From contig PUNQ01000064.1 of the NCBI GenBank assembly GCA_003551845.1, forward strand, positions 10,649 through 74,648: a stretch of DNA of 64,000 nt, written 5' to 3'. Each line of letters begins with the position of its first letter. Position 1 is the first letter of the stretch. The stretch comes from Candidatus Nealsonbacteria bacterium. GTDB taxonomy: Bacteria; Patescibacteriota; Minisyncoccia; Minisyncoccales; PWPS01. Below the pieces are notes generated by a model, which was not told where the DNA came from, did no database searches, and worked only from the letters and a program-made list of their open reading frames with translations. Made by a program: the position numbers and the translations under genes. Positions 16,443-61,299 of this stretch are shown here, piece after piece.

Positions 16443-16463
16443 CTCTTGTTTTCTAAAAATAAA

Positions 16464-19463: not shown

Positions 19464-19496
19464 CCCCCTTCTTTACACCTCGGGGGTGTAAAAATC
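19464..19496. repeat. Palindromic intergenic element, copy A (33 nt identical to copy B)
   Basis: cccccttctttacacctcgggggtgtaaaaatc; hairpin TTTACACC/GGTGTAAA. Confidence 0.85.
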
Positions 19497-19518
19497 TCCA
19501 AGCTTCTCCAACCTTGAG

Positions 19519-19546
19519 TTGATTTAAAAATCTTTTTACTTATAAT
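19519..19546 (+). promoter_or_regulatory. Sigma70-type promoter for tRNA-Arg
   Basis: TTGATT (19519-24), 16-nt spacer, TATAAT (19541-46), 9 nt before the tRNA 5' end. Confidence 0.6.
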
Positions 19547-19555
19547 TACAAGCGA

Positions 19556-19629
19556 CTCCTCGTAGCTCAACGGGATAGAGCGGCTCCCTCCTAAGGAGCA
19601 GGCTGGAGGTTCGAGTCCTCCCGAGGAGG
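19556..19629 (+). tRNA. tRNA-Arg (anticodon CCT)
   Basis: Manual cloverleaf. Acceptor CTCCTCG/CGAGGAG. D arm GCTC-AACGGGATA-GAGC. Anticodon arm GCTCC-CTCCTAA-GGAGC. Variable loop AGGCT. T arm GGAGG-TTCGAGT-CCTCC. Discriminator G. CCA not encoded. Confidence 0.9.
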
Positions 19630-19639
19630 CATTATTTCA

Positions 19640-19666
19640 CCCTTCCACCGACAGGAAGGGCTTTTA
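19640..19666 (+). terminator. Intrinsic terminator after tRNA-Arg
   Basis: CCCTTCC-accgaca-GGAAGGG followed by cttttactt. Confidence 0.55.
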
Positions 19667-19669
19667 CTT

Positions 19670-19708
19670 CCCCCTTCTTTACACCTCGGGGGTGTAAAAA
19701 TCGGGGGG
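19670..19708. repeat. Palindromic intergenic element, copy B
   Basis: cccccttctttacacctcgggggtgtaaaaatcgggggg; the outer CCCCC/GGGGG arms extend the hairpin. Confidence 0.85.
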
Positions 19709-19761
19709 CGGCCCATCTCTCCCCTTTTTTTATTGTATTTATTTACTATAATTAACACATT

Positions 19762-22844: not shown

Positions 22845-23701
22845 AACAGATCAACTGGAAAACTTTCGTCATAGAACTTATCTTTTTTATGGTGACGCTC
22901 ATTTTGGGTGTGATGATCTCTCCTTATGTATTTGAGATGATGCAATCGGAAGCGATTTATGCCGCGGAAGGAAATCAGTCGCAAGAAGCCGTTTCCCCGC
23001 TGATTTTTGTAGCTTACTTTATTTTTGCCACTCTTTTGGTTTATCTCGTCTCCAAGAGCGAAAAATTGAAAAAGCAGCGTCTTGTCTTTTTTAAATTCGC
23101 CTTCTTTCTTTCGGTGGCTGTCGGTGGCTTTATAACCTTGTCCGTTTTTCTTCCGGAGTTGATATCTTTTTCGGTGATGGTGATTTTGCTTTTTATCTGG
23201 GAGAAAAAGCCGATCGTCTTTATTCATAATCTACTCATCGTTTTTGCGATAGCCGGAATCGGCGCTTTGGTGGGAACGATATTCGATCCGCCCACGGTAG
23301 TCGTGTTTCTAATTCTTTTTTCCGTTTATGACGTGATTGCGGTTTATAAGACCAAGCATATGGTTAAAATGGCCACCGAGATGATAAAAACCAAGGCGGT
23401 AATGGGTCTTATAGCCCCACTTGATTTTAAGAGTCTTTTTGACGATTTATCCAAAAAAAAGAAAAAGGAGTTCATGGTTTTGGGAGGAGGAGACTTGGCT
23501 TTTCCTCTCTTTTTAGCGACATCGGTTTCTCATAATTACGGCTTTGTTGAAGCTATGGTTGTGGTTTCTTTTGCCTGTTTGGGACTTTTCGGATCCTTTT
23601 TCTTTTTCATTATTCAAAAAATAAAAAAGCCGATCCCGGCATTGCCCCCGATAGCCCTCCTCTCAATAATAGGGTACCTGTTGGCCCGCTTCGTCCTCTG
23701 A
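22841..23701 (+). CDS. Presenilin/signal-peptide-peptidase-like GxGD intramembrane aspartyl protease (A22 family)
   Basis: Polytopic membrane protein with the three signature motifs in order: FSVYDVIAVY (YD), FMVLGGGDLAFPL (GxGD) and KPIPALPPIALL (PAL). Confidence 0.7.
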   Translation: MKQINWKTFVIELIFFMVTLILGVMISPYVFEMMQSEAIYAAEGNQSQEAVSPLIFVAYFIFATLLVYLVSKSEKLKKQRLVFFKFAFFLSVAVGGFITLSVFLPELISFSVMVILLFIWEKKPIVFIHNLLIVFAIAGIGALVGTIFDPPTVVVFLILFSVYDVIAVYKTKHMVKMATEMIKTKAVMGLIAPLDFKSLFDDLSKKKKKEFMVLGGGDLAFPLFLATSVSHNYGFVEAMVVVSFACLGLFGSFFFFIIQKIKKPIPALPPIALLSIIGYLLARFVL

Positions 23702-23738
23702 CCCCTTTTTTACACCTACGAGGTGTAAGAATCGGGGG
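23702..23738. repeat. Palindromic intergenic element, copy C (overlaps the 3' end of the Elp3-like gene and begins 1 nt after the stop of the A22 protease gene)
   Basis: ccccttttttacacctacgaggtgtaagaatcggggg. Confidence 0.8.
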
Positions 23739-25275
23739 TGCGATTCTTTACCATGTAGCTGTCCTCAAGTTTATATCCGTTTTTTCTCCAATAACCCCTG
23801 GCACCCACGCCGGAAATAACCGTAATCTTTTTTGTCGGTGCCAGTTCTTCGGCCCTTTTTACCAATCTTTTACCCAGTCCTTTGTGTTGTGGTGAAGTTT
23901 TCAAAACTTCTCCGTTTTTAATCATCGTTTGCTGGCCGTAAGTGTGAATTTCTCTTATTATGGTTGAGTTTTTAAGCACTTCCGGATACGGATCGGCCGG
24001 AATTCTCATTCTCAGAAGACTGAACAATTTGGTTCTTTTTTTGTTTTCAAAGGTTAAAACCATCTCTTTTCCTCCCGAAGCCTCGTATTCTTCTTTAAAA
24101 AATTTCAACTCTTCTTCCGGGTCGTAGTTGTCTTTTACTTCTCTGCAACGGATGCACTTACATCTCCACCCCTCCTTCTCGGCTTTCTCGTGTAATTTTT
24201 CTCTTAAATTGGAAGTTCCCCCGCCGGCAACCACGTATTGGGACGGAATATCCCTTATCACTCTTTGAATTCTGACCCAGTAAGGAATTTCTTTTTTAAT
24301 TTTTGAAAGCAAGTCGATCAACTCATCGGTTGTGTAGGGCTCATATTCCCCTTTTTTGTAAAGCTCATAAAGAGGAGCTTCTTTGAGCACCATGCAGGGA
24401 TAAATTTTTAAAAAATCGGGCTTAAACCTATCGTCTTTGAAGATCAGCTCCATCATTTCAATATCCTTTTTAAAAGTGGAGCCGGGAAGGTCGGGCATTA
24501 TTTGATAACAAACCTTGAATCCGGCATCTTTCAGCAATTTTGTCGCCTTTACGGTTTCTTTCACTTCGTGACCTCTTTTATTTTTTTTCAAAACGTCGTT
24601 GAAGACACTTTGAACTCCGATTTCCACCATCGTCACCCCCAATTTTCTTAAGTGAGAAATTTCTTTTTTATCTATATAATCTGGCCTGGTTTCTATTGAG
24701 AGAGTAACCATTTTCCGTTTTGCCTTTTCATTGTCTTCTTGTGCCTTTTTTAATGTTTCTGCCTTTTTACCGTTTAAGCTCTCAAAGCAAGATTTAATGA
24801 ACTCTTCCCTGTAATCTTTGTCGTAGTAAGACCATGTTTCTCCAACTATTCTCAACTCAACTTTATCCGTAGGGTGGCCGGTTCTGGTTAGAGAATTAAT
24901 CCTGTTTTTCACTTGCTTTTCGGGGTCGAAGTCGTTTAATTTAGCTCGCATTACCGCCGGTTCGTCATCCAGGTAACTTTTGGGCGCTCCTTCCTGAATC
25001 GGGCAATAAAGACAATCACCCGGGCATTTATGAGGTTTGGTAAGAACCGAAACGTTGACCACCCCGGAAAGAGACCTTACCGGCCTGAGTCTTAGCACGG
25101 CTTCCAATCTTTTATCTTTTACACCCATATTTTTGTAGGCTTCAATAAGGTCGGTGTTGGGTGGGCAATTAACACCGTATTTTTTACATACGTTTCTTTT
25201 GGTTTGATCGACCACTTCTCGAGACACCTCTTCTTTTTCAAGTAGTCTTTTTACAATTTCTTTTGCTAAATTCAT
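23716..25275 (-). CDS. elp3: Elp3-type radical SAM + GNAT enzyme (tRNA U34 cm5 modification)
   Basis: VLTKPHKCPGDCLYCP radical-SAM cluster. SYLDDEPAVMRA. KVELRIVGETWSYY. C-terminal GNAT IHTYGQ..QHKGLGKRLVKRAEELA. Confidence 0.8.
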   Translation of the reverse strand: MNLAKEIVKRLLEKEEVSREVVDQTKRNVCKKYGVNCPPNTDLIEAYKNMGVKDKRLEAVLRLRPVRSLSGVVNVSVLTKPHKCPGDCLYCPIQEGAPKSYLDDEPAVMRAKLNDFDPEKQVKNRINSLTRTGHPTDKVELRIVGETWSYYDKDYREEFIKSCFESLNGKKAETLKKAQEDNEKAKRKMVTLSIETRPDYIDKKEISHLRKLGVTMVEIGVQSVFNDVLKKNKRGHEVKETVKATKLLKDAGFKVCYQIMPDLPGSTFKKDIEMMELIFKDDRFKPDFLKIYPCMVLKEAPLYELYKKGEYEPYTTDELIDLLSKIKKEIPYWVRIQRVIRDIPSQYVVAGGGTSNLREKLHEKAEKEGWRCKCIRCREVKDNYDPEEELKFFKEEYEASGGKEMVLTFENKKRTKLFSLLRMRIPADPYPEVLKNSTIIREIHTYGQQTMIKNGEVLKTSPQHKGLGKRLVKRAEELAPTKKITVISGVGARGYWRKNGYKLEDSYMVKNRTPDSYTS

Positions 25276-25402
25276 AGATTTTTATTTGGTGGTTTATTAT
25301 AGCTCATCAATCTTTATATTCAAAACAGTCAAACCGCTCTTTTTCAATTTATCTGTTTTTAGGTGTGTGGACGGGATTAAGTTGAGTTAAATGCAGTAAT
25401 AA

Positions 25403-25564
25403 TTTTCACAAGGAGGGGATTTTGAAGCGTTATGGTCTACATCTATGGATGCCGGAGATTGGCCGTATACGATGCAACTTTGTAGCTATTGGTGTCCCGG
25501 AGTGAAGAGGTGGACCGGATCGGGATATGATATGGGAATTTCAGTTCGCTGCATTAAAGAATAA
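25403..25564 (+). pseudogene. Orphan C-terminal remnant of a DUF1566/FISUMP-type domain gene
   Basis: In-frame translation FSQGGDFEALWSTSMDAGDWPYTMQLCSYWCPGVKRWTGSGYDMGISVRCIKE*. No upstream start or N-terminal part (stop at 25400). ..WSTS..(G)ISVRCIK is the family's C-terminal signature. Compare YWSSTE..YRVRCVRR at the end of 36100..37200. Confidence 0.55.
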
Positions 25565-25590
25565 AAATTTTAAAGTTGCCACCCCTTTAA

Positions 25591-25615
25591 TTGTGATAGG
25601 TTGAACCTATCACAA
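25591..25615. promoter_or_regulatory. Perfect 11-3-11 palindrome (operator-like site or hairpin)
   Basis: ttgtgataggt-tga-acctatcacaa, 45 nt upstream of the -35 of the Trm9-like gene promoter. Confidence 0.35.
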
Positions 25616-34723: not shown

Positions 34724-34788
34724 ATGTTCATTTTACCAGAAAAAATATTAACAATAAACAGGCGAACTTACAAGCCCGCTGCCTCGGA

Positions 34789-34824
34789 CCCCCGTTTTTA
34801 CACCTACGAGGTGTAAAAAGGGGG
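34789..34824. repeat. Palindromic intergenic element, copy D
   Basis: cccccgtttttacacctacgaggtgtaaaaaggggg. Confidence 0.85.
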
Positions 34825-34914
34825 TTGGTGGTTTTATTTTTTTGGAATTTTATTTATAATTCGACAAAGGTCGTTTAAAATAGTAATACAAGTGAAGTAA
34901 AAAGATAAAATTTT

Positions 34915-35904
34915 ATGACTAAAAAGATAGGTCTTTTAACTTTTGTCTTTATTTTGACTTTTTCTTTAACCGGTTTGGTTTTGGGAATGGCTCCGGAACA
35001 TGCTCAAAGACCGCAAGGAGATGATTCCGATGTTGTTCGCCGAACCAGAGGAATTGATCAAGCCATGGAAAGAGTTAGGGAAAATTTAGAAAGAATAGAG
35101 GAAGAAACCGGCAGAAATGTCAGGGGTCTTGAGAGAGCTATTGAAAGGCTGATGTTGAGGAGGGGTGATTTTTGTTATCAAATAGAAGAAGATTTGGAGT
35201 ACGGGGATGAAGAGAATGATGTCGGGCGTCTGCAGTCGATGCTTAGAGAAGAAGGGTTTTATAGGGGTGAAATAGATGACCTCTATGGCTGGTCTACGGC
35301 CGAGGCTCTTTATAATTTTCAAAACGACAATGAGATAGAACTGGAAGGACTGGAGCGTTTCGGGTTTGTTCTCAGTGATCAGGCCAAAGACCTTCTGAAT
35401 GAAAGATTTGAATGTGATCCGGAAGATGAAGAAGAGGAAAATGATATTGACCGGTTGGAGCTTTTGATAAGTTCTACCGATGGAGGAACTACGGACCCGG
35501 ACCCGGAAACTTATCAGTACGAAGAGGGAGAAGAGGTAACGGTTGAAGCTATTCCCGATGAAGGCTATGAATTTGAAGGATGGGAAAAAAGGGGTAGTGC
35601 AACCGAGTGTGATAGTGAAGATAAAAAATGTGTTTTTGAAATTAAGGAAGACTCTACCCTCGCCGCTCATTTTGTAGCGGTTGAAGAAGATGTCGTTTAC
35701 AGCTGCGAAGAAGATGCGGACTGTCAGTGGGTATCAACCAATTGTTGTCCGGAGACCGCAGGAGCCAATTGGGAGTGTGTAAACGAGGCGGAGACCGAAT
35801 TGGATTGCCCGGAAAATCCGATTTGCCTTGATGTGCAGAGCCCAAAACCGACTTCTTCTTGTGAGTGTGCTGACGGAGAGTGTCGTGAAGAAGATGGTCA
35901 GTAG
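34915..35904 (+). CDS. Secreted protein: peptidoglycan-binding-like domain + InlB-B-repeat-like domain + Cys-rich C-terminus
   Basis: Signal. GDENDVGRLQSMLREEGFYRGEIDDLYGWSTAEALYNFQ (PG_binding_1-like). YEEGEEVTVEAIPDEGYEFEGWE (bacterial repeat domain). Ten Cys in the last 80 aa. Confidence 0.5.
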   Translation: MTKKIGLLTFVFILTFSLTGLVLGMAPEHAQRPQGDDSDVVRRTRGIDQAMERVRENLERIEEETGRNVRGLERAIERLMLRRGDFCYQIEEDLEYGDEENDVGRLQSMLREEGFYRGEIDDLYGWSTAEALYNFQNDNEIELEGLERFGFVLSDQAKDLLNERFECDPEDEEEENDIDRLELLISSTDGGTTDPDPETYQYEEGEEVTVEAIPDEGYEFEGWEKRGSATECDSEDKKCVFEIKEDSTLAAHFVAVEEDVVYSCEEDADCQWVSTNCCPETAGANWECVNEAETELDCPENPICLDVQSPKPTSSCECADGECREEDGQ

Positions 35905-35924
35905 TGTAAACTGAAGAGTAGTTT

Positions 35925-35954
35925 AAAACGCCCCGTTTTTTGATGGGGCGTTTT
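35925..35954 (+). terminator. Intrinsic terminator after 34915..35904
   Basis: AAAACGCCCC-gttttttgat-GGGGCGTTTT. Confidence 0.55.
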
Positions 35955-35987
35955 ATAATTTACATGCTTGGAGATGGGTAATGTAAA

Positions 35988-36020
35988 TTTTTACACCTAC
36001 GAGGTGTAAAAATGGGGGGG
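35988..36020. repeat. Palindromic intergenic element, copy E (no 5' C-run)
   Basis: tttttacacctacgaggtgtaaaaatggggggg. Confidence 0.8.
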
Positions 36021-36099
36021 CTTTTTTTACGAGGGGGGGATTTATGATATACTTTTTCAATACTCATAAAAGCGTCTATTTTTATAATTAACATTAAAT

Positions 36100-37200
36100 A
36101 TGAATAAAAAAGGTTTTACTTTAATTGAGTTACTAATAGTAATCGGCATTATCGCCATCCTGGCATCAGCCGTAATAGTGGCCATAGACCCGGCCCAACA
36201 ATTTGCCGCGGCAAGGGATGCCACCAGAAGCAATCACATAAACTCACTACACAATTCACTCATCTCCTATCAAGTGGCAAACCAAGGAACCTGGGGAGAC
36301 ATAAGCCTACCCCAAGAACTTACTGAAATATGCAACACCAACCTTGAGTCTCCTGATTGCACCGGTTTAGTTGATCTCTCCGATTTGGTTGACAGCGGTC
36401 ATATGAACCAAATCCCCGTAGACCCACAAGCGGAAGGGGACGGCACGGGATATCTCATATCCCGAAGCAGTGTAATCCTGGTAGCCGAAAACGCGGAAAC
36501 CCGTTTCATAGCGGTTGGAATTACCGAATCAGAATATGCGGAAAACGGAAATGGTGAAGAAAACGGAAATGGTGAAGATTTAGCACTTTTTTGTGAAGAT
36601 CCGGAAAATCAACCCGACGGAGGTGAGCATGATGGAATTCACGACATAGGAGAAAATGATGACAGAATTTATTGTGATAATGATGGCAAGATGTGGTCTC
36701 CGACTCTCTCCGGCATGGGTGATGCCAGCGACAACGGAGCTGTAACTCTTGAGTGGGGCTGTTATGAAAATGAAATTAATGCGGATGAGGACTCGGACGG
36801 AGCAAGCAATACCGATACTATTTTAACAGAAGATTGTAAAACTGATGACGACCCACCAACGGATGAAATTGCCGCAAAAGCTTGTAATCAACTCGAATGG
36901 GCCGGAAGTGAGCAAGGGGATTGGTATTTGCCCGCCAAGTTGGAAATAGAAGCCTTGGTTCAAAGCGCTGAAAGTGACGGCGACGGTGAATGCCCCGACG
37001 ATTGGACGTGGGAAGAAGGTAGTGATCACGAGGATTTTGATAATTGTGAGCCTGAATATGATTATAACGCCCAGTCTGCTGCCTACTGGTCGTCTACTGA
37101 GAGTAGCTCGACCCACGCCCACAGACTCTTCTTCAGCCTTGGCAGCACGCACACGACCACCAAGTTCAACAGCTACCGGGTGCGGTGCGTCCGCAGGTGA
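36100..37200 (+). CDS. Type IV pilin-like protein (prepilin N-terminal methylation motif) with C-terminal DUF1566/Lcl-type domain
   Basis: MNKKGFTLIELLIVIGIIAILASAVIVAI is the class III signal. Acidic middle region (NGNGEENGNGED). C-terminus AAYWSSTESSSTHAHRLFFSLGSTHTTTKFNSYRVRCVRR. Confidence 0.7.
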   Translation: MNKKGFTLIELLIVIGIIAILASAVIVAIDPAQQFAAARDATRSNHINSLHNSLISYQVANQGTWGDISLPQELTEICNTNLESPDCTGLVDLSDLVDSGHMNQIPVDPQAEGDGTGYLISRSSVILVAENAETRFIAVGITESEYAENGNGEENGNGEDLALFCEDPENQPDGGEHDGIHDIGENDDRIYCDNDGKMWSPTLSGMGDASDNGAVTLEWGCYENEINADEDSDGASNTDTILTEDCKTDDDPPTDEIAAKACNQLEWAGSEQGDWYLPAKLEIEALVQSAESDGDGECPDDWTWEEGSDHEDFDNCEPEYDYNAQSAAYWSSTESSSTHAHRLFFSLGSTHTTTKFNSYRVRCVRR

Positions 37201-37322
37201 TTATCAAGGTATTGGTTTTTTGATTTTTGACCCTTGGGCTTGGTATATGATGTTGCCGCAAGTTTAATTCCAATTAAAAAAGCATAAAGAAACCCTATTT
37301 TGCCACTTTGAGACCGTAGGTC

Positions 37323-37387
37323 GAAGAATCCCTTCGAATGCTGCCATGCGGACAATTAAAGAGATCCTTCACCATGTTCAGGATGGA
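37323..37387. repeat. ~65-nt repeat module, copy 1 (GAAGAATC..AAAGAGATCCTTC..TCAGGATG)
   Basis: gaagaatcccttcgaatgctgccatgcggacaattaaagagatccttcaccatgttcaggatgga aligns with 37911..37971. Confidence 0.6.
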
Positions 37388-37657
37388 AGAGCGAATAAAG
37401 AGAAAATAAATGATATAGATGAATAGAGTAAATTCTTAAAAATCCGATTAGAACGGCGCCGGGCAAGGTCGACCCGCCGCCGGCCGCCCGATTTTTTGAG
37501 CCTTGCCCGTGGAGTCGGGGAAGGTTCAAAAAGAGAGCAATTAATTGTGCTCGATATCCTCTTTTGAGAGACCACACCTCGAATCACCCAGCGGTGATTC
37601 GGGCCTTACGCTCTCGGAATTTCATTTCCGACAAAGTCGAAAAACCATGCTGAAATT

Positions 37658-37798
37658 CCTGCGAGAGCCCTCTCAAAGAGGGTATCTTCGCTTATGAAAA
37701 GGAAAGCTCGTGCCGAACCGCCTCCGAGAGCTCTTCAAAGAGGGTATCTTTGCTTCCAAGGTAGAGCGAGAGCTTCTTTGAAAAGAGCATCTTCATTT
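37658..37798. repeat. Three degenerate direct repeats (~35 nt), each with an internal short hairpin
   Basis: cctgcgagagccctctcaaagagggtatcttcgctt (37658). cctccgagagctcttcaaagagggtatctttgctt (37721). agagcgagagcttctttgaaaagagcatcttcattt (37763). Copy starts 63 and 42 nt apart. Confidence 0.6.
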
Positions 37799-37864
37799 AA
37801 GGCTAAAAAATGAAAATCATAAACAACCTGCCTCGCGGCGATTTTTTTGTTTGTAAAAACAATA

Positions 37865-38034
37865 GTCATTCTGAGCAAGCGTGGCGCAGTGCCTGCCTGC
37901 CGGCAGGCAGGAAGAATCTCTTGGAAAGACGGCGGAACAAAGAGATCCTTCGGCTGGCGCCTCAGGATGACGGGGGAAGAGGAGACGCTTCGCTCCGCTC
38001 AGGATGACGAGCGGGGTGGGTTCAGGATGACGAG
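37865..38034 (+). other. GC-rich nested inverted-repeat block (candidate structured RNA or REP-like cluster)
   Basis: GTCATTCTGAG (37865) pairs with CTCAGGATGAC (37961). These enclose the perfect palindrome CCTGCCTGCCGGCAGGCAGG (37892-37911) and AAGAATCTCTT/AAGAGATCCTT. Two more TCAGGATGACGAG copies lie at 37998 and 38022. CCGCTC/GAGCGG hairpin. Confidence 0.4.
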
Positions 38035-38093
38035 TAGGAAGGCCGCCAGTCGGCGGGTTTTGTTTAAAGATTTCCAATTACGGATTACCGATT

Positions 38094-38125
38094 AAATCCA
38101 CTTTTAGTGGATTTTCTCGTTTTTA
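38094..38125 (+). terminator. Intrinsic terminator closing the noncoding block
   Basis: AAATCCACT-ttt-AGTGGATTT followed by tctcgttttt. Confidence 0.6.
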
Positions 38126-38147
38126 ACATTCAAATTATCTTATTTTG

Positions 38148-38156
38148 TGTTATAAT
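38148..38156 (+). promoter_or_regulatory. Extended -10 promoter (TGtTATAAT) for argS
   Basis: tgttataat ends 6 nt before ATG 38163. Confidence 0.45.
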
Positions 38157-38162
38157 GGACGC

Positions 38163-39839
38163 ATGATAAAAAGAGAAATTAAAGAAAAAATAAAAGATTC
38201 TTTGGAGCGGATTTATGACATATCCGTAAGTCTTGAAGATTTGGATTTGGAGATACCTGCGGATAAAAGTCACGGAGATTATTCCGCCAATATCTGTTTT
38301 AGGCTGGCCGGGGAAGTGGGAAAATCCCCGAAGGAAATCGCCTCGGAAGTTGCCAAGGACATTAAAAATGATCTTTTTATTTGTGAAAGCAAAAACGGTT
38401 TTTTGAATTTCCGTCTTACCGACTCGGCTCTTGAAAAAATGGTTAAAAAGGTCTTGAAATTCGAAACCGAAAAAAGGGAAAAAACGATGGTTTTGGATTA
38501 CTCTTCCCCCAACATCGCCAAGTCGTTCGGTATCGGCCATCTTCGCTCTACCATAGTAGGACAAGCTATCTATAACATATATGAATATTCCGGATGGAAT
38601 TGCGTGGGAATAAATCACTTGGGAGATTGGGGAACCCAATACGGAAAACTTTTATATCAAATAAAAGAAAAAGATTTGAATCCCAAAGAGCTTTCGGTCA
38701 AAGATTTGGAAAAGCTTTACGTTGACTTTCATAAAAGGGCGGAAAAAAATCCGGAGATGGAAGAGGAGGGAAAGCGGTGGTTCAAAAAACTTGAAGACGG
38801 GGATCCGGAAGCTACCCAAATTTGGGAGATTTGCGTGGAAAAAAGTATGCGGGAGTTTGAAAAGATATACGATCTTTTAAATGTTGAAATCGATCATCAT
38901 ATCGGGGAAAGTTTTTATCAGGACAAGATGGAGGCGGTAATTGAGGAGGCCAAAGAAAAAGGAGTGGCCAAAGAGTCGAAAGGAGCCCTGATTGTTGATT
39001 TTGGAGACGAGATTCCGCCGGCGATGCTTTTAAAATCGGACGGCGGAACCACTTATTTTACCCGGGATTTGGCTACCGTAAAGTACAGAGTTGATCGCTG
39101 GGATCCGGAGCTTTTCATATATGAAATAGGCGCCGATCAGAAGCTACATATGAGACAGCTTTTTAAAACCGTAGAGATGCTGGGCTGGAAAAGTGAAAGC
39201 GACTTCATGCACGTCGCCCACGGAATGTATCGATTGAAGGACGGGGCGATGTCGACCAGAAAGGGGAAAACAATTCATTTGGAAGATGTTTTAAATGAAG
39301 CCATGAAGAGAGCCGAAAAAATAATAGATGAGTCGGAGACGACCGGTGAAATTACCGAAAAAGAGAAAAAAAAGATTGCCGAGAAGGTGGGAGTCGGAGC
39401 GGTCAAATACGCCGATCTTAAAAAACACTATAAAAAAGATATAGTCTTTGACTGGGAAAAAGCTTTTTCTTTGAAGGGGAACTCCGGCCCTTATTTACAA
39501 TACACTGCCTTGAGAGCGAAAAGCGTTTTGGATAAGCACGATGAAAAGTTTAAATTGGAAATTAATAAACTCTCCGACCCGGAAAAAGCGGTATTGAAAG
39601 AGATTATTCTGTTTGATGAGGTTATGGAGACGGCGGAGAAAAATTTTACACCTTCGAGCATTGCCAATTTCAGTTATCGGGTGGCGAAAAAATTCAACGC
39701 CTTTTACGCCGAAAAACCGATATTGGAGGCGGGTACGGAAGAAGAAAAGATACAACGATTATCGATTACGAAAGCCGGCTTTGAAGTTCTGAAAAAATCT
39801 TTATCCATTTTAGGGATTGATTTGCCGGAAAGAATGTAA
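38163..39839 (+). CDS. argS: Arginyl-tRNA synthetase
   Basis: SSPNIAKSFGIGHLRST (HIGH region). DWGTQYG. GAMSTRKG (KMSK-like). C-terminal anticodon-binding domain. ATG 38163 preferred because 38145 lies upstream of the -10. Confidence 0.9.
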   Translation: MIKREIKEKIKDSLERIYDISVSLEDLDLEIPADKSHGDYSANICFRLAGEVGKSPKEIASEVAKDIKNDLFICESKNGFLNFRLTDSALEKMVKKVLKFETEKREKTMVLDYSSPNIAKSFGIGHLRSTIVGQAIYNIYEYSGWNCVGINHLGDWGTQYGKLLYQIKEKDLNPKELSVKDLEKLYVDFHKRAEKNPEMEEEGKRWFKKLEDGDPEATQIWEICVEKSMREFEKIYDLLNVEIDHHIGESFYQDKMEAVIEEAKEKGVAKESKGALIVDFGDEIPPAMLLKSDGGTTYFTRDLATVKYRVDRWDPELFIYEIGADQKLHMRQLFKTVEMLGWKSESDFMHVAHGMYRLKDGAMSTRKGKTIHLEDVLNEAMKRAEKIIDESETTGEITEKEKKKIAEKVGVGAVKYADLKKHYKKDIVFDWEKAFSLKGNSGPYLQYTALRAKSVLDKHDEKFKLEINKLSDPEKAVLKEIILFDEVMETAEKNFTPSSIANFSYRVAKKFNAFYAEKPILEAGTEEEKIQRLSITKAGFEVLKKSLSILGIDLPERM

Positions 39840-40471: not shown

Positions 40472-43300
40472 ATGGATTTTTCAAAAATGGAAGAAGAGAT
40501 ATTGGATTTTTGGAACAAGGAAGATATATTCGAAAAAACTCTGGAAATCAGGCAAGATGCCGATCTTTTCAGTTTTTATGACGGACCCCCTTTCGCTACC
40601 GGGAAGCCGCATTACGGGCATATTCTGGCAAGCACGATAAAGGACAGTGTTCTCAGGTACAAGACGATGAGAGGATACAAGGTGCCGAGAAGAGTCGGAT
40701 GGGACTGCCACGGACTTCCGGTTGAGAATTTGATTGAAAAAGAGATCGACGTAAACAGTAAGAGAGAGATTGAAGAGGAGGTGGGAATTGAAAAGTTCAA
40801 TAAAAAATGCAAGGACTCCGTTTTCAGATGCGTTGATGATTTTAAGGAGGCTCTTACTCGTGTCGGTAGATGGGCCGATTATGAAAATGACTATTCAACG
40901 ATGGACAAAGAATATACCGAGTCGGTCTGGTGGGTTTTTAAGAAGCTATGGGATAAAAAATTAATTTACAAGGATTACAGGATTTCTCCCTATTGTCCCC
41001 GGTGTGGAACTCCGATTTCCAACTTTGAGGTCAATCAGGGATACGAGATGACGACCGATCCTTCCGTTTTTGTAAAAATGAAGGTGAGGATCGGCAAACT
41101 GAAAGGAGCTCATCTTTTGGCTTGGACGACTACTCCGTGGACTTTACCCGGAAATGTAGCGTTGGTTGTTGATGAGGAATTTGATTATGTGCTCGTAAAG
41201 GTGAAAAATGAAAAATTGATTTTGGCGGAAAAGAGACTGGAAATTTTGGAAGAGGATTTTAAGATTGAAGAAAAGCTGAAAGGGAAAGATTTAATCGGCT
41301 TGGAATACGAACCACCTTACGACCATATGAAAAAAGCGAAACCGGAGGGAATTGAAAATTCATTCAAGGTTTATTCGGCGGATTTTGTTACTTTGGAAGA
41401 AGGAACGGGCATAGTTCATACGGCGGTAATGTACGGAGAAGATGATTTTCAATTGGGAAAGGAGAAAAACCTCCCCTTCTTCCATCTGGTGGATGAGGAA
41501 GGAAAATTCAATGAATATGCCGGAGATTTCAAAGAGATGTTCGTAAAAAAGGCTGATAATAAAATTTTAGAGGACCTGGAAGAAAGAGATCTTCTGTATA
41601 AAAAAGAGGATTATAATCACAGCTACCCATTTTGTTGGCGATGCGACACTCCTTTGCTTTATTACGCTTTTGAAAGCTGGTATGTGAAGGTAACTTCCTT
41701 TAAGGATGAGCTGATAGAAAATAATAAAAAAATTCATTGGGTTCCGGAACACCTGAAAGACGGAAGATTCGGAAACTGGCTGGAGGGGGCCAAAGACTGG
41801 TCGGTTTCCAGGAACAGATTTTGGGGGGCTCCGATTCCGGTTTGGGAGTGTGAAGATTGTGATCGGGTCAAAGTCGTAGGAAGCGTGGAAGAATTGGAAG
41901 ACGAACCTGAAGATTTGCACCGCCCCCACATAGACGAGGTCGTTTTTGATTGTGAGTGCGGAGAAGAGATGAAGAGAGTGGAAGAAGTTTTTGATTGCTG
42001 GTTCGAGTCCGGATCGATGCCGTACGCGCAAAGACATTACCCCTTCGAGGACAAGGAAAAGACGGAAGAAGCTTTTCCGGCCGACTTCATAGCTGAAGGA
42101 ATGGATCAAACCAGGGGCTGGTTTTACACTTTACATGTTTTAGCGACGGCACTTACCCTTGAAGATGTGGGGCTGGGAGAGGGAAATCCGGCTTACAAAA
42201 ACGTGATTGCCAACGGACTTTTATTGGATGAGACGGGGAAAAAGCTCTCCAAAAGACTCAGAAATTATCCGGAGATGGATCATATATTCGATAATTACGG
42301 AGCCGATTCCCTGCGCTTCTTCTTACTTTCTTCCACCAAGGTTGGAGAGGACTATCGATTTTCAGAAGAAAGAGTCAAAGAGACAAACAGAAAAGTTATT
42401 TCCACTTTGTGGCACAGTTATCGTTTTTTCAATACTTATGTTGAAAAAGATGAATTAACCGACAAGCTTGAGGTCCGAAATTCGCTGAATAAGTGGATCT
42501 TGTCAAAAGTCAATCGTGTTAACAAACTGATTATAGAAGAAATGGATGATTATAAGTTAACCCAATCTTCCCGTTTGATTGAAGAGCTGATAGACGATTT
42601 ATCGAATTGGTATATCAGAAGGTCGAGAAGAAACCTGCAAAAGCCGGAATCGAAGAAGGAAAAGGAGGAGTTCGCAAAGACATTTCATTATTGTTTGGTC
42701 AAAATAGCCAAAATGATGGCTCCGTACTCTCCTTTCATTGCCGACAAGCTCTTCAAAGAGCTTACCGGAAAAGAATCGGTACACTTGGCGGATTATCCCG
42801 AGCCGGAAGAAAAGTATTTGGACGAAGAGTTGGAAAAAAAGATGGAGACGGCGAGAGACTTGGCTCAGAAGGCGCTTTCCAAGAGAGCGGAAGCGGGAAT
42901 AAAGGTCAGACAACCCCTCTCAAAGCTGATAGTAACGGAAAAATTGGACAAGCATATAGCCGATATATTGAAAAAGGAGATCAATGTTAAAGAGGTCGTT
43001 TCAGGAAAGAGGTTTGAATTGATTACCGAGATTGATTCCGAATTGAAAAAAGAAGGAATGGCCAGAGAAACGGTTCGTCGGGGTCAGCACTTGAGAAAAA
43101 AAGCGGGACTTACTCCCGATGACAAAATAAAGCTTTACTACAGGGGAGATTTCAAAGATTTCTTCAGTGAAAATGAGAAATACTTCAAGAAAGAAACTTC
43201 CGCTGAAAAAATAGAAGAGATGGGAAAAGATCACCCCGAATGGACCAAGGAAATTGAAATTGACGATCGAAAGTTGATTTTGGGATTGGAAAAGGTATAA
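40472..43300 (+). CDS. ileS: Isoleucyl-tRNA synthetase
   Basis: 942 aa. PPFATGKPHYGHIL (HIGH). GWDCHGLP. TTPWTLPGN editing domain. GKKLSKRL (KMSKS). Confidence 0.92.
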   Translation: MDFSKMEEEILDFWNKEDIFEKTLEIRQDADLFSFYDGPPFATGKPHYGHILASTIKDSVLRYKTMRGYKVPRRVGWDCHGLPVENLIEKEIDVNSKREIEEEVGIEKFNKKCKDSVFRCVDDFKEALTRVGRWADYENDYSTMDKEYTESVWWVFKKLWDKKLIYKDYRISPYCPRCGTPISNFEVNQGYEMTTDPSVFVKMKVRIGKLKGAHLLAWTTTPWTLPGNVALVVDEEFDYVLVKVKNEKLILAEKRLEILEEDFKIEEKLKGKDLIGLEYEPPYDHMKKAKPEGIENSFKVYSADFVTLEEGTGIVHTAVMYGEDDFQLGKEKNLPFFHLVDEEGKFNEYAGDFKEMFVKKADNKILEDLEERDLLYKKEDYNHSYPFCWRCDTPLLYYAFESWYVKVTSFKDELIENNKKIHWVPEHLKDGRFGNWLEGAKDWSVSRNRFWGAPIPVWECEDCDRVKVVGSVEELEDEPEDLHRPHIDEVVFDCECGEEMKRVEEVFDCWFESGSMPYAQRHYPFEDKEKTEEAFPADFIAEGMDQTRGWFYTLHVLATALTLEDVGLGEGNPAYKNVIANGLLLDETGKKLSKRLRNYPEMDHIFDNYGADSLRFFLLSSTKVGEDYRFSEERVKETNRKVISTLWHSYRFFNTYVEKDELTDKLEVRNSLNKWILSKVNRVNKLIIEEMDDYKLTQSSRLIEELIDDLSNWYIRRSRRNLQKPESKKEKEEFAKTFHYCLVKIAKMMAPYSPFIADKLFKELTGKESVHLADYPEPEEKYLDEELEKKMETARDLAQKALSKRAEAGIKVRQPLSKLIVTEKLDKHIADILKKEINVKEVVSGKRFELITEIDSELKKEGMARETVRRGQHLRKKAGLTPDDKIKLYYRGDFKDFFSENEKYFKKETSAEKIEEMGKDHPEWTKEIEIDDRKLILGLEKV

Positions 43301-45905: not shown

Positions 45906-47246
45906 ATGAAAAAGTCAATTAAAAAAATAACCGCTCTAACGAAGCGCAAGGGTTTTGTTTATCCGTCATCTCTGATTTATGGTGGATTCAGTTCCACTTA
46001 TGACTTCGGTCCGCGCGGTGTAGCTTTGAAAAACAACCTGAAAAACGAGTGGTGGAAAGAGATGACGAGATGTCAGGATGACGTGGTCGGTTTGGATTCT
46101 TCAATAATAATGAATCCGAAAATCTGGCAGGCTTCGGGACATCTTTCCAAGGGTTTTGCCGACAAGCTCAGTGAATGCAAAGATTGCCATAAAAGATTCA
46201 AGGATCTGGAGGAGGACGGAAAGAGTACCGAAAAATGCCCGGATTGCGGAGGAGATCTGATGGAACCCAGAGATTTTAATTTGATGATGAAAACTTTTGT
46301 CGGCCCGGTTGAAGATGATGCAACTACCGCTTACCTCAGAGCTGAAACATGTCAGGGAATATTCGTTAATTTTAAAAACGTCATGGATTCGATGAGAGTT
46401 GATTTGCCTTTCGGCATCGCTCAAATCGGTAAATCCTTCAGAAACGAGATTACTCCCGGAAACTTCATCTTCAGGATGAGAGAGTTTGAACAAATGGAGA
46501 TGCAATGGTTTTGCAATAAGAAAGAGGCCGATGAATTTTTTGAGTTCTGGCTGAAGCAGAGACTTGAGTGGTATGAAAAAATGGGAATTGATATGGAAAA
46601 GATAAGAAAAAATGAAATCGGTGAAGACGAAAGAGCTCACTACGCTCGCAGGCAAGTGGATATCGAATACAAGTTCCCCTTCGGATGGGGAGAGATAGAA
46701 GGAATTCATAATCGGGGAGACTGGGATCTTTCGAACCACTCAAAGCACAGCGATGAAGATTTAATGGTGGATGGTGATTATCCGTGGGTGATAGAAACTT
46801 CCATAGGTGTAGAAAGGTCATTTTTAGCTTTTTTGGTTGATTCTTATGAGGAGCTGGAAAGTGGACGAAGTAATGATGCGGAATCGAAAGAAGTGGTTTT
46901 AAAGCTCGATCCCAAGCTGTCTCCGACTAAAGTTGCCGTGTTTCCTCTTCTGAAAAACAAAAAGAAGCTCACGAAAAAAGCCAAACTAATCTTTGAGGAA
47001 ATAAAAAAAGAATTTGATGCCGTTTACGATGAAACGGGATCGATAGGAAAAAGATACAGAAGGCAGGACGAGGTCGGCACACCTCTTTGTGTAACGGTTG
47101 ATTTTGACAGCCTTGAAGATGACTCCGTTACGGTTAGGGAAAGAGACAGCATGGAGCAAATAAGAGTGAGCGAAAAAGAGTTGAAAAAGGTGGTGCGACG
47201 ATTTATGGAAGGAGAAGAATTCGGCAAGTTGGGAAAAAAAGCTTGA
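45906..47246 (+). CDS. glyQS: Glycyl-tRNA synthetase (alpha2 type)
   Basis: KRKGFVYPSSLIYGGFSSTYDFGPRGVALKNNLKNEWWK. FRNEITPGNFIFRMREFEQME (motif 2). Zn-ribbon-like CKDCH..CPDCG insertion. Confidence 0.9.
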   Translation: MKKSIKKITALTKRKGFVYPSSLIYGGFSSTYDFGPRGVALKNNLKNEWWKEMTRCQDDVVGLDSSIIMNPKIWQASGHLSKGFADKLSECKDCHKRFKDLEEDGKSTEKCPDCGGDLMEPRDFNLMMKTFVGPVEDDATTAYLRAETCQGIFVNFKNVMDSMRVDLPFGIAQIGKSFRNEITPGNFIFRMREFEQMEMQWFCNKKEADEFFEFWLKQRLEWYEKMGIDMEKIRKNEIGEDERAHYARRQVDIEYKFPFGWGEIEGIHNRGDWDLSNHSKHSDEDLMVDGDYPWVIETSIGVERSFLAFLVDSYEELESGRSNDAESKEVVLKLDPKLSPTKVAVFPLLKNKKKLTKKAKLIFEEIKKEFDAVYDETGSIGKRYRRQDEVGTPLCVTVDFDSLEDDSVTVRERDSMEQIRVSEKELKKVVRRFMEGEEFGKLGKKA

Positions 47247-61086: not shown

Positions 61087-61108
61087 ATTTTAGATGAGCT
61101 CTTTTTTT

Positions 61109-61140
61109 ACCCCCTTTTTTACACCTCGTAGGTGTAAAAA
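61109..61140. repeat. Palindromic intergenic element, copy F (opposite orientation to C-E)
   Basis: ccccctttttttacacctcgtaggtgtaaaaa. Confidence 0.85.
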
Positions 61141-61161
61141 CTATTAATTTTAACTTAAAAA

Positions 61162-61197
61162 CCCCCTTTTTTACACCTCGTAGGTGTAAAAATGGGG
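61162..61197. repeat. Palindromic intergenic element, copy G
   Basis: cccccttttttacacctcgtaggtgtaaaaatgggg. Confidence 0.85.
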
Positions 61198-61299
61198 TTG
61201 GATCCATTCCGGTTTAATGTTGAAAAAAAGCCTTTTCATGATAAACTTTAGCTATGCTCAGCAGTCGATGGGTTAAGCAGTCAATTATTTATTAATCGT

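Follow-up and report, generated by a model that had tools for sequence, protein, structure and literature searches.

Hairpin-forming repeat families piled up between a pilin-like gene and argS in Candidatus Nealsonbacteria

Is a long, hairpin-rich spacer in a small bacterial genome the gene for one structured RNA, or is it assembled from smaller parts? The question is raised by a noncoding block of 0.96 kb (37201-38162) that separates a pilin-like gene from argS in the 64,000-nucleotide stretch of a Candidatus Nealsonbacteria contig (PUNQ01000064.1) analysed here, hereafter the window. The initial annotation had described the block as the longest noncoding stretch and as a candidate structured RNA locus. 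The ranking holds: the block measures 962 nt and the next gap 434 nt, when two ORFs composed of repeat sequence are disregarded. The repeats, hairpins, palindrome and terminator reported for it are all present within 1-2 nt (Table 1). Its description as GC-rich is accurate for 37860-38060 (61% G+C), the only clearly GC-rich part, and not for the block overall (45.8% vs 41.7% in the window). We find that the spacer is a pile-up of several small hairpin-forming interspersed repeat families and not a single structured RNA gene.

Table 1 Features of the spacer and its flanks, in window coordinates
Feature	Position	Strand	Basis
Pilin-like protein gene, N-terminal methylation motif and Lcl_C (DUF1566-like) C-terminal domain	36100-37200	+	Pfam N_methyl 3e-8, Lcl_C 1.4e-9
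X', degenerate hairpin copy of the GTCATTCTGAG..GAAGAATC repeat: GCCACTTTGAG..CGAAGAATCCC	37301-37332	+	aligned with the 37863-37971 doublet
Y', inverted hairpin copy: AAAGAGATCCTTC..TCAGGATG	37358-37385	-	repeat families D2, D7, I10
GC-rich hairpins CGGGCAAGG/CCTTGCCCG and TTTTTGAGCCTTGCCCG/CGGGGAAGGTTCAAAAA	37460-37532		repeats I1, D5, I9
156-nt three-way-junction core element	37541-37697	+	covariance model R1: 175 bits, E = 9e-42
Second copy of the 3' strand of the 156-nt element: CCTCCGAGAGCTCTTCAAAGAGGGTATCTTTGCTTCC	37721-37757	+	D4, 95% identity over 21 nt
Third, more diverged arm (GCGAGAGCTTCTTTGAAAAGAGCATCTTCATTTA) and hairpin ATCTTCATTT/AAATGAAAAT	37766-37817	+	I4, I12, I21
Weak terminator-like site, 4-bp GCC/GGC stem then T7	37827-37852	+	-4.4 kcal/mol, z ~0
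X, hairpin repeat (AGTCATTCTGAG...GGAAGAATCTC) with palindrome in loop	37863-37920	+	I20, I14, D6
Y, inverted hairpin repeat, reverse complement CGTCATCCTGAGGCGCCAGCCGAAGGATCTCTTT	37939-37971	-	I15
One full (37982-38011) and one half (38021-38034) hairpin copy, CGTC-tagged	37982-38034	-	D1, D2
Intrinsic-terminator-like hairpin CCGCC-agtc-GGCGG then GTTTTGTTT, G+C-rich	38043-38066	+	sequence and fold
Heptamer tract GATTnnn (GATTTCC AATTACG GATTACC GATTAAA)	38069-38094	+	TRF: period 7, 3.7 copies
Predicted intrinsic terminator AAATCCACT-ttt-AGTGGATTT then TCTCGTTTTT	38094-38124	+	-13.2 kcal/mol, z = -5.2
Predicted argS promoter TTCAAA, 16 nt, TG-n-TATAAT, and ATG at 38163	38129-38165	+	sequence

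Separable modules in the spacer

BLAST searches and inspection of eight argS loci from relatives revealed that the modules of the block are separable: relatives carry them apart from one another, in intergenic spacers other than this one and in differing combinations. These spacers include those from smpB to a PG-binding gene (locus L002), from a histidine phosphatase gene to ileS (L003, L004 and L006) and upstream of argS (L003 and L007). Most relatives lack the block at the orthologous site; it is missing as a whole from L002, L005, L006, L009, L186 and L190, where the PG-binding gene lies ~50-130 nt from argS. The core region of the block folds with z = -4.4, and both strands of the block fold equally well, as expected for palindromic repeats.

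Several identities were searched for and rejected. The initial annotation had matched the block to no RNase P, SRP, 6S or T-box signature. A scan of Rfam 15 placed no family in the block at gathering score and gave four chance-level matches at E up to 10; elsewhere in the window it detected only tmRNA and one tRNA. A hidden protein gene or pseudogene was rejected, as none of the six block ORFs, including one across the 156-nt element, had a Pfam match at E up to 1 and the 50-aa core translation corresponds to no protein on record. The block had no blastn match among 50,697 phage records, which argues against a phage origin; in viral contigs, patterns for a 16-mer and a 19-mer from the core gave only chance matches, and none of the 19-mer matches was recognized by the covariance model. 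CRISPR and TIGR arrays consist of regularly spaced short repeats beside a cas or tas gene (TIGR definition: PMC12045711). Here, TRF reported only the 7-nt tract and an A-rich run, the arms of the 156-nt element are irregularly spaced (62 and ~38 nt), and the neighbors are the pilin-like gene and argS, not cas or tas. Finally, copies near aminoacyl-tRNA synthetase genes led us to consider a T-box or other argS/ileS leader. This reading was rejected because there was no T-box match and because the 156-nt element directly adjoins the stop codon upstream of it and is found behind mreB, gatC and pilin-like genes as well.

The pilin-like gene is context and lies outside the repeats; an exact look-up of its product returned no record. 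At the 5' end of the block, the only promoter-like site is a 9/12 match at 37300. Plus-strand terminators are confined to the block's end, where the sites at 38043-38066 and 38094-38124 appear to be real, judging by consensus and predicted folding; the latter is the clean terminator of the initial annotation. The true argS ATG, at 38163, lies 6 nt past the -10 box, and the mRNA is probably leaderless. Exact look-ups found the 558-aa product from 38163 on record and not the 564-aa form from 38145. Two smaller components complete the inventory. The CGGGCAAGG/CCTTGCCCG stem pairs 37460-37468 with 37501-37509, and the fold of 37452-37500, which covers the first hairpin only, is no better than that of shuffled sequences (z = 0.2). 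Both hairpins at 37460-37532 resemble decayed ATTCCCG-type hairpin repeats, and a related copy is found at 37224-37243. Tracts similar to the heptamers at 38069-38094 occur in L042, L003, L006 and L191.

Hairpin repeats of the dRS3/NTS kind

One family in the block is the hairpin GTCATYCTGAG..GAAGRATC (also written GTCATCCTGAG...), present as two inverted doublets, one full copy and one half copy. X' and Y' form a decayed inverted doublet (37296-37392, fold z = -1.5), and the X/Y doublet (37860-37975) folds at -50 kcal/mol with z = -3.7. The ~65-nt modules at 37323-37387 and 37911-37971 are identical in 46 of the 56 ungapped columns of a gapped alignment. The loop of X holds a perfect 20-nt palindrome, CCTGCCTGCCGGCAGGCAGG (37892-37911), a small component that nests within other modules, and two copies of this long variant of the hairpin are present in L003. 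GTCATTCTGAG at 37865 pairs with CTCAGGATGAC at 37961, and the stem described earlier as 11 bp is a 12-bp stem that joins 37911-37922 to 37940-37951. The apparent nested structure is the automatic product of two inverted copies of one hairpin. Further downstream, TCAGGATGACGAG occurs at 37999 and 38022, and the copies at 37982-38034 are colinear with those just upstream of argS in L003 and L189. The X-Y array upstream of argS is likewise colinear among the window, L003 and L189, which could mean that it has a conserved function at the argS site.

The repeats and folds of the block go beyond what chance would give: allowing at most one mismatch, TCAGGATGAC occurs nine times in the window against 2.7 expected, with four of the nine inside the block. 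The family is also widespread. Among the matches listed, the hairpin is found in at least 120 viral contigs of 34-70% GC, compared to a chance estimate of ~6, and the copies in relatives sit in spacers beside annotated genes. The relatives also carry CGTCATTCCCGCGAAAGCGGGAATC, which is 2-3 substitutions from the published Neisseria NTS (PMC11893778), and near-exact NTS copies are found in L003, L188 and L189. The hairpin is ubiquitous and of the known dRS3/NTS kind. According to the initial annotation, many scattered copies of the modules would mark a REP-like pile-up. Scatter of this kind was found for the family across relatives but not in this genome: within 72 kb of the organism (the window plus L191, which is 99.98-100% identical to it), the GTCAT hairpins and the 156-nt element are confined to the block.

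REPs of the CGTC superfamily have an unpaired terminal CGTC (or TGTC/CCTC) tag beside an 8-9-bp stem that starts from A-T pairs, a loop of 4-5 nt and a short CCA-like tail; they are dispersed through the genome in many copies, mostly outside genes, and head-to-head dimers predominate in the described families (Di Nocera et al. 2013, PMC3733652). CGTC-tagged REPs include Neisseria dRS3, and NTS/Ssn-related motifs are cut by the GIY-YIG ssDNA nuclease SsnA (PMC11893778), whose single-domain, cd10448-type gene they often flank. In the block, minus-strand CGTCATCC starts the copies that end at 37971, 38008 and 38031. AGTC takes its place in the plus-strand copy at 37863, whereas at 37301 and 37385 the copies have degenerated. 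AT opens the stem (ATCCT/AGGAT), which comprises 5 bp, a tandem G-A and 3 bp. Its loop is 4 nt in 37939-37971 and ~30 nt in 37863-37920, and its tail is CTC, not CCA. The window copies share with CGTC REPs, dRS3 and NTS the unpaired (C)GTC tag, the AT-initial stem, the GTCAT...GAATC frame, the arrangement in intergenic inverted pairs and clusters and the spread over many phyla. By contrast, the interior of their stem is CTGAG/CGAAG and contains tandem G-A mismatches, the tags of their doublets point outward, the tail is CTC and one copy carries a 30-nt insert. The published SRM pattern HGTCWYN(0-2)YYVSBRHN(0-5)WNVSBRGN(0-2)RNCYNB matches nothing in the block. Its single match in the window falls within the 45906-47246 ORF and is, for that reason, probably due to chance; relatives L003 and L046 have SRM matches.

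A motif scan and Pfam searches of small ORFs detected no cd10448-type, GIY-YIG or Ssn gene in the window or the fetched loci. No transposase or RAYT gene was found in the window or any fetched locus, and no second arm pair, such as a parent insertion sequence with matching ends would have, flanks a gene in the fetched loci. REPINs are REP doublets mobilized by RAYT transposases, with GTAG-type tags and a linked RAYT gene. The doublets described here resemble them in having two inverted hairpin copies with a ~20-nt spacer that can fold as two hairpins or one long one; they differ in the CGTC-type tag and in the lack of a RAYT gene in the window and fetched loci. As a whole, the spacer is comparable to the BIME clusters of enterobacteria such as E. 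coli and to the NIME/dRS3 clusters of Neisseria, in which several repeat families are nested or adjacent in one spacer beside a surface-protein gene and the spacer varies among related genomes. The repeat families here are different, the host is a small-genome Patescibacterium and the copy number in the genome is apparently low. A literature search found no description of BIME/NIME-like clusters in Patescibacteria. On balance, we consider it likely that the spacer is a BIME/NIME-like mosaic of non-autonomous hairpin repeats.

A 156-nt element with a covarying three-way junction

The initial proposal of a structured RNA locus and the outcome that was named as refuting it each hold in part, and the proposal fares better for one part of the block. 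The core element at 37541-37697 is a conserved three-way junction with strong covariation; the block around it consists of separable modules and is missing from this site in six relatives. The element begins with TAATTGTGCTCG and ends with CTTCGCTTA. Its TIR-like closing stem, P1, pairs 37553-37570 with 37670-37686 and 37547-37549 with 37689-37691. P2 pairs 37578-37588 with 37593-37603, and the 9-bp hairpin CGAATCACC-cagc-GGTGATTCG maps to 37580-37601, a shift of one base from its earlier placement at 37579-37600. P3 comprises 37608-37613/37663-37668, 37616-37624/37651-37659 and 37625-37630/37638-37643. RNAalifold identified compensatory changes in 18 of 49 pairs, and 97% of cells pair compared to 37-49% in slid controls, which give 1-3 compensatory pairs; none of 500 shuffles reached the values of the element. 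Folding the window and L002 copies one at a time gives a consistent structure. The arms GATAYCCTCTTTTGAGAG and CTCTCAAAGAGGGTATC (also represented as GATACCCTCTTTTGAGAG) pair in all eight copies, with 13 of 16 pairs invariant. The element is previously undescribed, and its structure is maintained by compensatory changes. On the sense strand, G-U pairs outnumber A-C mismatches (16 vs 8) and one U-G pair is invariant. However, in every copy the antisense strand folds more stably, by 2-8 kcal/mol, and the strand is therefore not settled by energy.

Three degenerate CCCTCT..AGAGGG hairpin arms are found at ~37663-37693, 37721-37757 and 37766-37799. The second has homologs in L002, L004, L045, L042 and L043, and the third aligns with the third arm of L004. 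The weak terminator-like site at 37827-37852 matches the position of a clear intrinsic terminator in the copies of L045, L002 and L004; an intrinsic terminator also follows the unit in L003. In seven of eight full copies, TA precedes the element (before AWTGCGC) and ends it (after CGCT), and the L002 copy ends CGCTTT. A repeat of two bases is too short to establish a target-site duplication, and the element may in truth extend at its 3' side past the second arm.

A metagenome scan identified six further contigs with the element. The eight full copies occupy no fewer than six different gene contexts. It follows leuS (L044 and L045) and pilin-like Lcl_C genes (window, L042 and L048) and lies in a divergent spacer in L046. 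In L043, it follows mreB and, 488 nt on, gatC, the two copies being 96% identical on one 1.9-kb contig. In all co-directional contexts, it is sense to the upstream gene and starts at the stop codon. The histidine phosphatase site is without the element in the window, L002, L005, L186 and L190 and holds decayed copies in L003/L188/L189, L004 and L006. The leuS site is empty in the window's organism (L191) and filled in L044 and L045, where the orthologous copies are 92% identical compared to 74-76% for the flanking leuS and glmS coding DNA. That the element evolves more slowly than neighboring coding DNA points to host-level or element-level selection and not neutral junk. It was absent from ~119 kb from other relatives.

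ERIC/IRU-type MITEs occur at gene 3' ends and are co-directional with the genes (PMC3184786). The 156-nt element has the terminal inverted repeats, short non-coding core, dispersed copies and filled and empty orthologous sites of a MITE. It shares with ERIC/IRU of enterobacteria and Correia of Neisseria, MITEs that function as RNA elements, a length in the range of 100-160 bp, TA termini, a stable fold and the co-directional position at gene 3' ends. In contrast to these families, it folds not into one long hairpin but into a three-way junction whose two inner hairpins covary independently. It also begins precisely at the stop codon, has one or two additional 3'-strand copies plus a terminator behind it, and has no known parent insertion sequence. 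We conclude that the composite (the junction with its TIR-like closing stem, two partial 3'-arm copies and a weak terminator) is MITE-like. It is probably part of a co-transcribed 3' UTR.

Origin of the mosaic and rival readings

In the explanation that we favor, insertion or recombination would have brought the modules in. For the REP hairpins, movement was probably as single-stranded DNA hairpins through an Ssn- or RAYT-like enzyme that would be encoded elsewhere, and the 156-nt element would insert at a TA/TAA directly at the stop codon. Read-through from the pilin-like gene may transcribe the entire stretch as an extended and strongly structured 3' UTR, with the two terminators in 38043-38124 ending that transcript and insulating the argS promoter.

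The strongly negative folding z-scores in parts of the block, the terminators at its 3' end and the covariation in one sub-region could also be accommodated by a single large structured non-coding RNA gene, akin to the large ornate RNAs. We regard this as very improbable: the modules recur independently, most relatives do not have the block at the orthologous site, both strands fold equally well, there is no Rfam match in the block even at E = 10 and nothing promoter-like at the 5' end beyond the site at 37300. By these sequence comparisons, the reading appears already contradicted. The pilin-like gene raises another reading, in which the block would be an accessory part, or the remnant, of a system that diversifies the pilin-like Lcl_C protein, either a template region of a diversity-generating retroelement (DGR) or recombination cassettes for swapping the C-terminal domain. 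Lcl_C and C-type-lectin-like C-termini are common DGR targets. The N-terminal 157 aa of the window protein are 76% identical to those of its L042 homolog, and the C-terminal domains are wholly different and unrelated; a second Lcl_C-like C-terminal fragment lies at ~25400-25564 of the window, and the 156-nt element follows pilin-like Lcl_C genes at three loci. However, the window has no template repeat matching the gene's 3' end, no reverse transcriptase was noticed there (outside a systematic search), and the element also follows the housekeeping genes leuS, mreB and gatC and the histidine phosphatase gene, making this reading highly unlikely as well.

A more serious rival is that the 156-nt junction, linker, second arm and terminator form a functional RNA module kept by the host and are more than selfish DNA. 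Such a module could serve as a portable 3'-UTR element that affects mRNA 3' ends or stability, as an RNase processing site or as the source of a 3'-UTR-derived small RNA. The compensatory changes, the slow divergence of the leuS copies relative to the essential genes beside them, the sense orientation at the stop codon in every co-directional context, the excess of G-U pairs with an invariant U-G and the intrinsic terminators in four relatives are consistent with this idea. But the empty orthologous sites and the decayed copies at the histidine phosphatase site, the near-identical copies in consecutive L043 spacers, the absence from the ~119 kb of other relatives and the slightly better antisense fold in every copy argue against it, and we view it as possible, though not probable. 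It overlaps with the mobile-element reading, as a mobile element can be co-opted. Still more tentatively, and with considerable doubt, we suggest that the junction, second arm and terminator would be a Patescibacteria-specific mobile 3'-UTR RNA cassette that docks exactly on stop codons and, separately, that the dRS3/NTS-like arrays would be targets of an Ssn-type single-strand nuclease. The cassette would then leave the upstream gene with a 3' end that is structured, protected or processed, or else serve as the source of a small RNA. The nuclease, acting on the arrays beside a variable pilin-like gene, would modulate recombination or DNA uptake at the locus, as proposed for Neisseria.

Genomes of the Candidate Phyla Radiation are small and densely packed and are usually held to have little repetitive DNA. 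The mosaic favored here indicates that at least some Nealsonbacteria-like lineages have several hairpin-repeat families, one of them the hairpin of dRS3/NTS type that Neisseria and many other phyla also carry. It also carries a warning for annotation, as an intergenic block of such a genome can be long and look highly "structured" and yet be a mosaic of repeats and not an RNA gene. The 156-nt element is a ready candidate for a new Rfam or MITE family and offers a concrete case in which to ask if repeats of this kind serve as 3'-end modules of RNA.

The noncoding block and its neighbours

The argS gene directly 3' of the block encodes a protein with 66-72% identity to MAG proteins from Candidatus Nealsonbacteria and other Patescibacteria. 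The window DNA was present, and identical, in a Logan contig of SRR490150 (L001), and NCBI assembly GCA_003554795.1 (L191) was 99.98-100% identical to it over 9 kb. The true start of argS is the ATG at 38163, 6 nt past a TG-n-TATAAT box, and the noncoding block therefore spans 37201-38162. The argS promoter, a strong sigma-70-type sequence conserved in L007, a relative's contig, lies 3' of two terminator-like sites. Its extended -10 box occupies 38149-38156 and no Shine-Dalgarno sequence precedes the ATG (38129-38165); from this sequence, argS appears to be leaderless.

As the initial annotation held, no other noncoding stretch in the window is as long as the block: it measures 962 nt and the next longest 434 nt, in a count that disregards two ORFs made of repeat sequence. 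Neither ORF had a Pfam match. All the features listed in that annotation were found, with positions within one or two bases. Its description of the block as GC-rich held for the last 200 nt (61%), but overall the enrichment is mild (45.8% versus 41.7%). The motif TCAGGATGAC, allowing at most one mismatch, occurred 9 times in the window versus 2.7 expected, with four of the nine inside the block. The nested doublet folded with a z-score of -3.7, the central region with -4.4 and the final terminator with -5.2. The features of the block are beyond chance expectation.

In relatives, the conserved gene order is tmRNA, smpB, a peptidoglycan-binding protein gene, argS, a histidine phosphatase gene, ileS and recO, and in L002, L005, L006, L009, L186 and L190 roughly 50-130 nt separate the peptidoglycan-binding gene from argS. 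About 2.1 kb, comprising the pilin-like gene and the block, has been gained by the window or lost by the others.

The pilin-like protein has a modular make-up: residues 1-157 are 76% identical to a homologue in L042 (8442-9554), located in a type IV pilus gene cluster, and the C-terminal halves are unrelated. Another homologue lies 3' of the histidine phosphatase gene in L006 (7581-7867). The pilin-like gene and the gene preceding it (35100-37200) have a GC content of about 41-54%, above most surrounding DNA and similar to stretches near 39000-39400 and 40500-40800. At 25400-25615, the second-longest spacer (434 nt) carries an apparent C-terminal fragment of another Lcl_C/DUF1566-type protein, ending ...GISVRCIKE (stop at 25562-25564), and a hairpin, TTGTGATAGGT-tga-ACCTATCACAA (25591-25615), also present in L003 (about 6335) and L007 (about 4835), within their repeat blocks. 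The window's largest direct-repeat family is a long low-complexity stretch of GAA/GGT/GAG-type triplets (Glu/Gly-rich) at 17166-17647, in a 680-aa ORF (16446-18488).

Features of the block and its 5' neighbour (window positions)
Feature	Position	Location	Composition
Pilin-like protein gene	36100-37200	5' of block	N-terminal methylation motif and Lcl_C domain
Module X			GTCATTCTGAG, loop, GAAGAATCTC
Module Y			AAAGAGATCCTTC, loop, TCAGGATGAC; reverse complement of an X variant
Decayed X-Y doublet	37301-37385
156-nt element	37541-37697	Block centre	Three-way-junction fold
Decayed copies of the element's 3' strand	37721-37757 and 37766-37799
Weak T-run site	37827-37852	3' of the decayed arm copies
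Good X-Y doublet	37863-37971
Perfect palindrome	37892-37911	Inside the loop of X
One full and one half Y	37982-38034
Terminator-like site, plus strand	38043-38066
Terminator	38094-38124	Plus strand, before argS promoter

Hairpin repeats of a known kind

Modules X and Y are inverted forms of one hairpin repeat. In the X variant behind Y, ATTCT/AGAAT has become ATCCT/AGGAT, with both sides changed. Lying about 20 nt apart, X and Y can fold as two hairpins or as a nested structure. The nested structure reported in the initial annotation is indeed present, but it is an automatic result, because X and Y form an inverted doublet.

The X/Y hairpin is of a known, ubiquitous kind. The Neisseria NTS, CGTCATTCCCGCGMAVGCGGGAATCYRG, contains dRS3 and is cleaved in single-stranded form by the GIY-YIG nuclease SsnA, and Ssn-related motifs occur in many phyla (PMC11893778); the CGTC-tagged REP superfamily was described by Di Nocera et al. 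(PMC3733652). Like these repeats, the window copies have a (C)GTCAT...GAATC frame and a stem starting AT; unlike them, they have a stem interior of CTGAG/CGAAG with tandem G-A. The published degenerate SRM pattern was not matched by the window's own X/Y copies. Relatives of the window's organism carry CGTCATTCCCGCGAAAGCGGGAATCCCT, with 2 substitutions in 28 nt relative to the NTS consensus. The matches listed for GTCATYCTGAG-N3-30-GAAGRATCYC came from more than 120 viral contigs with a GC content of 34-70%, each with up to 7 copies; chance alone would, by our own estimate, give about 6 matches. No GIY-YIG gene was found in the window or fetched loci, with about a tenth of the organism's genome covered. 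Other X/Y arrays lie immediately 5' of argS in L003, L188, L189 and L007, and that of L003/L189 is colinear with the window's, with identical runs of 20-36 nt.

Another hairpin family, (C)CCCCTTYTTTACACCTCGGGGGTGTAAAAA, is represented by at least seven copies. All of them lie at gene ends (19455-19717, 23692-23748, 34780-34836, 35988-36029, 61101-61209) and look like repeat-borne terminators. Two of these, at 61101 and 61153, stand in tandem at a distance of 52 nt and are collapsed to a single copy in L191, which is about 20-50 nt shorter at window 61140-61161. Tandem GATTAnn heptamers (GATTACG GATTAAA GATTAAT ...) form a short tract at 38069-38094. Such tracts, also seen in L042 (about 8090-8116), L003 (3553-3583), L006 (7420-7448) and L191 (9737-9765), adjoin repeat blocks and lie 5' of promoters in several relatives and may be protein-binding or UP-like elements.

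A new dispersed structured repeat

The 156-nt element is closed by an 18-bp stem, GATATCCTCTTTTGAGAG with CTCTCAAAGAGGGTATC, which encloses the 9-bp hairpin described in the initial annotation and a second, longer hairpin. The three direct repeats noted there are the element's 3' strand and two progressively decayed copies. In an alignment of eight full copies, the consensus structure has 49 pairs, and in 18 of these both sides have changed. Pairing cells reached 97%, compared with 37-49% when partners were slid by 1-3 columns, and none of 500 shuffles matched the alignment in pairing, covarying-pair number or covariation score. The eight sequences form about three groups, and independent compensatory events are fewer than the cell counts suggest; the slid controls nevertheless indicate that the covariation signal is real. 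Between its orthologous copies in L044 and L045 the element is 92.3% identical, compared with 74-76% for the adjacent leuS and glmS coding DNA. As for strand, there were 16 G-U pairs versus 8 A-C mismatches on the sense strand, and antisense folds were 2-8 kcal/mol better.

A BLAST search of the block against eight relatives' argS loci placed the element, in L002, in the spacer that separates smpB from the peptidoglycan-binding gene and, in L004 and L006, 3' of the histidine phosphatase gene. A metagenome scan with a 21-nt degenerate pattern from the element's 3' arm returned seven contigs, six of them true: the element follows leuS in L044 and L045 and a pilin-like Lcl_C gene in L042 and L048, lies in a divergent spacer in L046, and is present twice in the 1.9-kb L043, after mreB and after gatC (96% identical). 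In all co-directional contexts it is sense and starts at the upstream gene's stop codon (TAA, then WTGCGCTCG); at the histidine phosphatase site the gene's last codons and stop overlap its 5' end. The L043 (Ga0307932_1020127) copies fill the consecutive spacers mreB-gatC and gatC-gatA (366-1008), and this bracketing by direct copies could favour gatC deletion or duplication.

Within the 72 kb covered for this organism, the block's repeats occur only here. R1, a covariance model of the element, found no copy in the viral contigs tested; across the 64-kb window, the 8 kb beyond it and about 119 kb of sequence from other relatives, its only additional hits were short decayed forms at the histidine phosphatase site. 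That site, the histidine phosphatase-ileS spacer, is empty (10-47 nt; protein ending ...KLN) in the window, L002, L005, L186 and L190. It holds a 57-nt hairpin, the closing stem only, in L003, L188 and L189, a CCTGCCTGCCGGCAGGCG palindrome in place of the inner hairpins in L004, and only a 5' fragment in L006. The leuS-glmS spacer is filled in L044 and L045 and empty in the window's organism, with unrelated sequence after the TAA stop.

An Rfam scan, proposed in the initial annotation, returned no match to the element, and literature searches covering these phyla turned up no such element. The element is a new dispersed structured repeat, within the class of structured MITE-like intergenic repeats. 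Contig L001 begins at window 37588, precisely within the CGAATCACC/GGTGATTCG hairpin loop; here the assembly broke at a palindrome, not at a dispersed repeat.

Nature and possible roles of the block

Collectively, these data show that the block is composed of non-autonomous interspersed repeats in a mosaic of the same kind as BIMEs in E. coli and NIMEs in Neisseria. For the entire block, the proposal of a single structured-RNA locus is not supported; it is supported for one module, the 156-nt element. This element shows the features that Delihas (PMC3184786) lists as operational criteria for a MITE: it has terminal inverted repeats and a TA at each end, lacks coding capacity, folds stably and occurs in several copies, with both filled and empty sites. 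Its constant stop-codon position would fit insertion at TA or TAA, and in genomes whose spacers are only tens of bases long the stop codon would be the safest such site. REP-type hairpins are probably mobilised by an Ssn- or RAYT-like enzyme acting on single-stranded DNA hairpins; no enzyme able to move the repeats was found in the window or fetched loci. The 156-nt unit could also, compatibly with mobility, be a portable 3'-end module. It is always sense, evolves slowly and, in relatives, is followed by a linker, second arm and clear intrinsic terminator, which makes such a role a serious possibility, albeit one we rate as less likely than not.

As for the mosaic itself, no plus-strand terminator lies between the pilin-like gene and 38043, which suggests that the block is probably transcribed as a long structured 3' UTR. 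The terminator annotated before the argS promoter was recovered together with a second terminator-like site, and the two would insulate the argS promoter.
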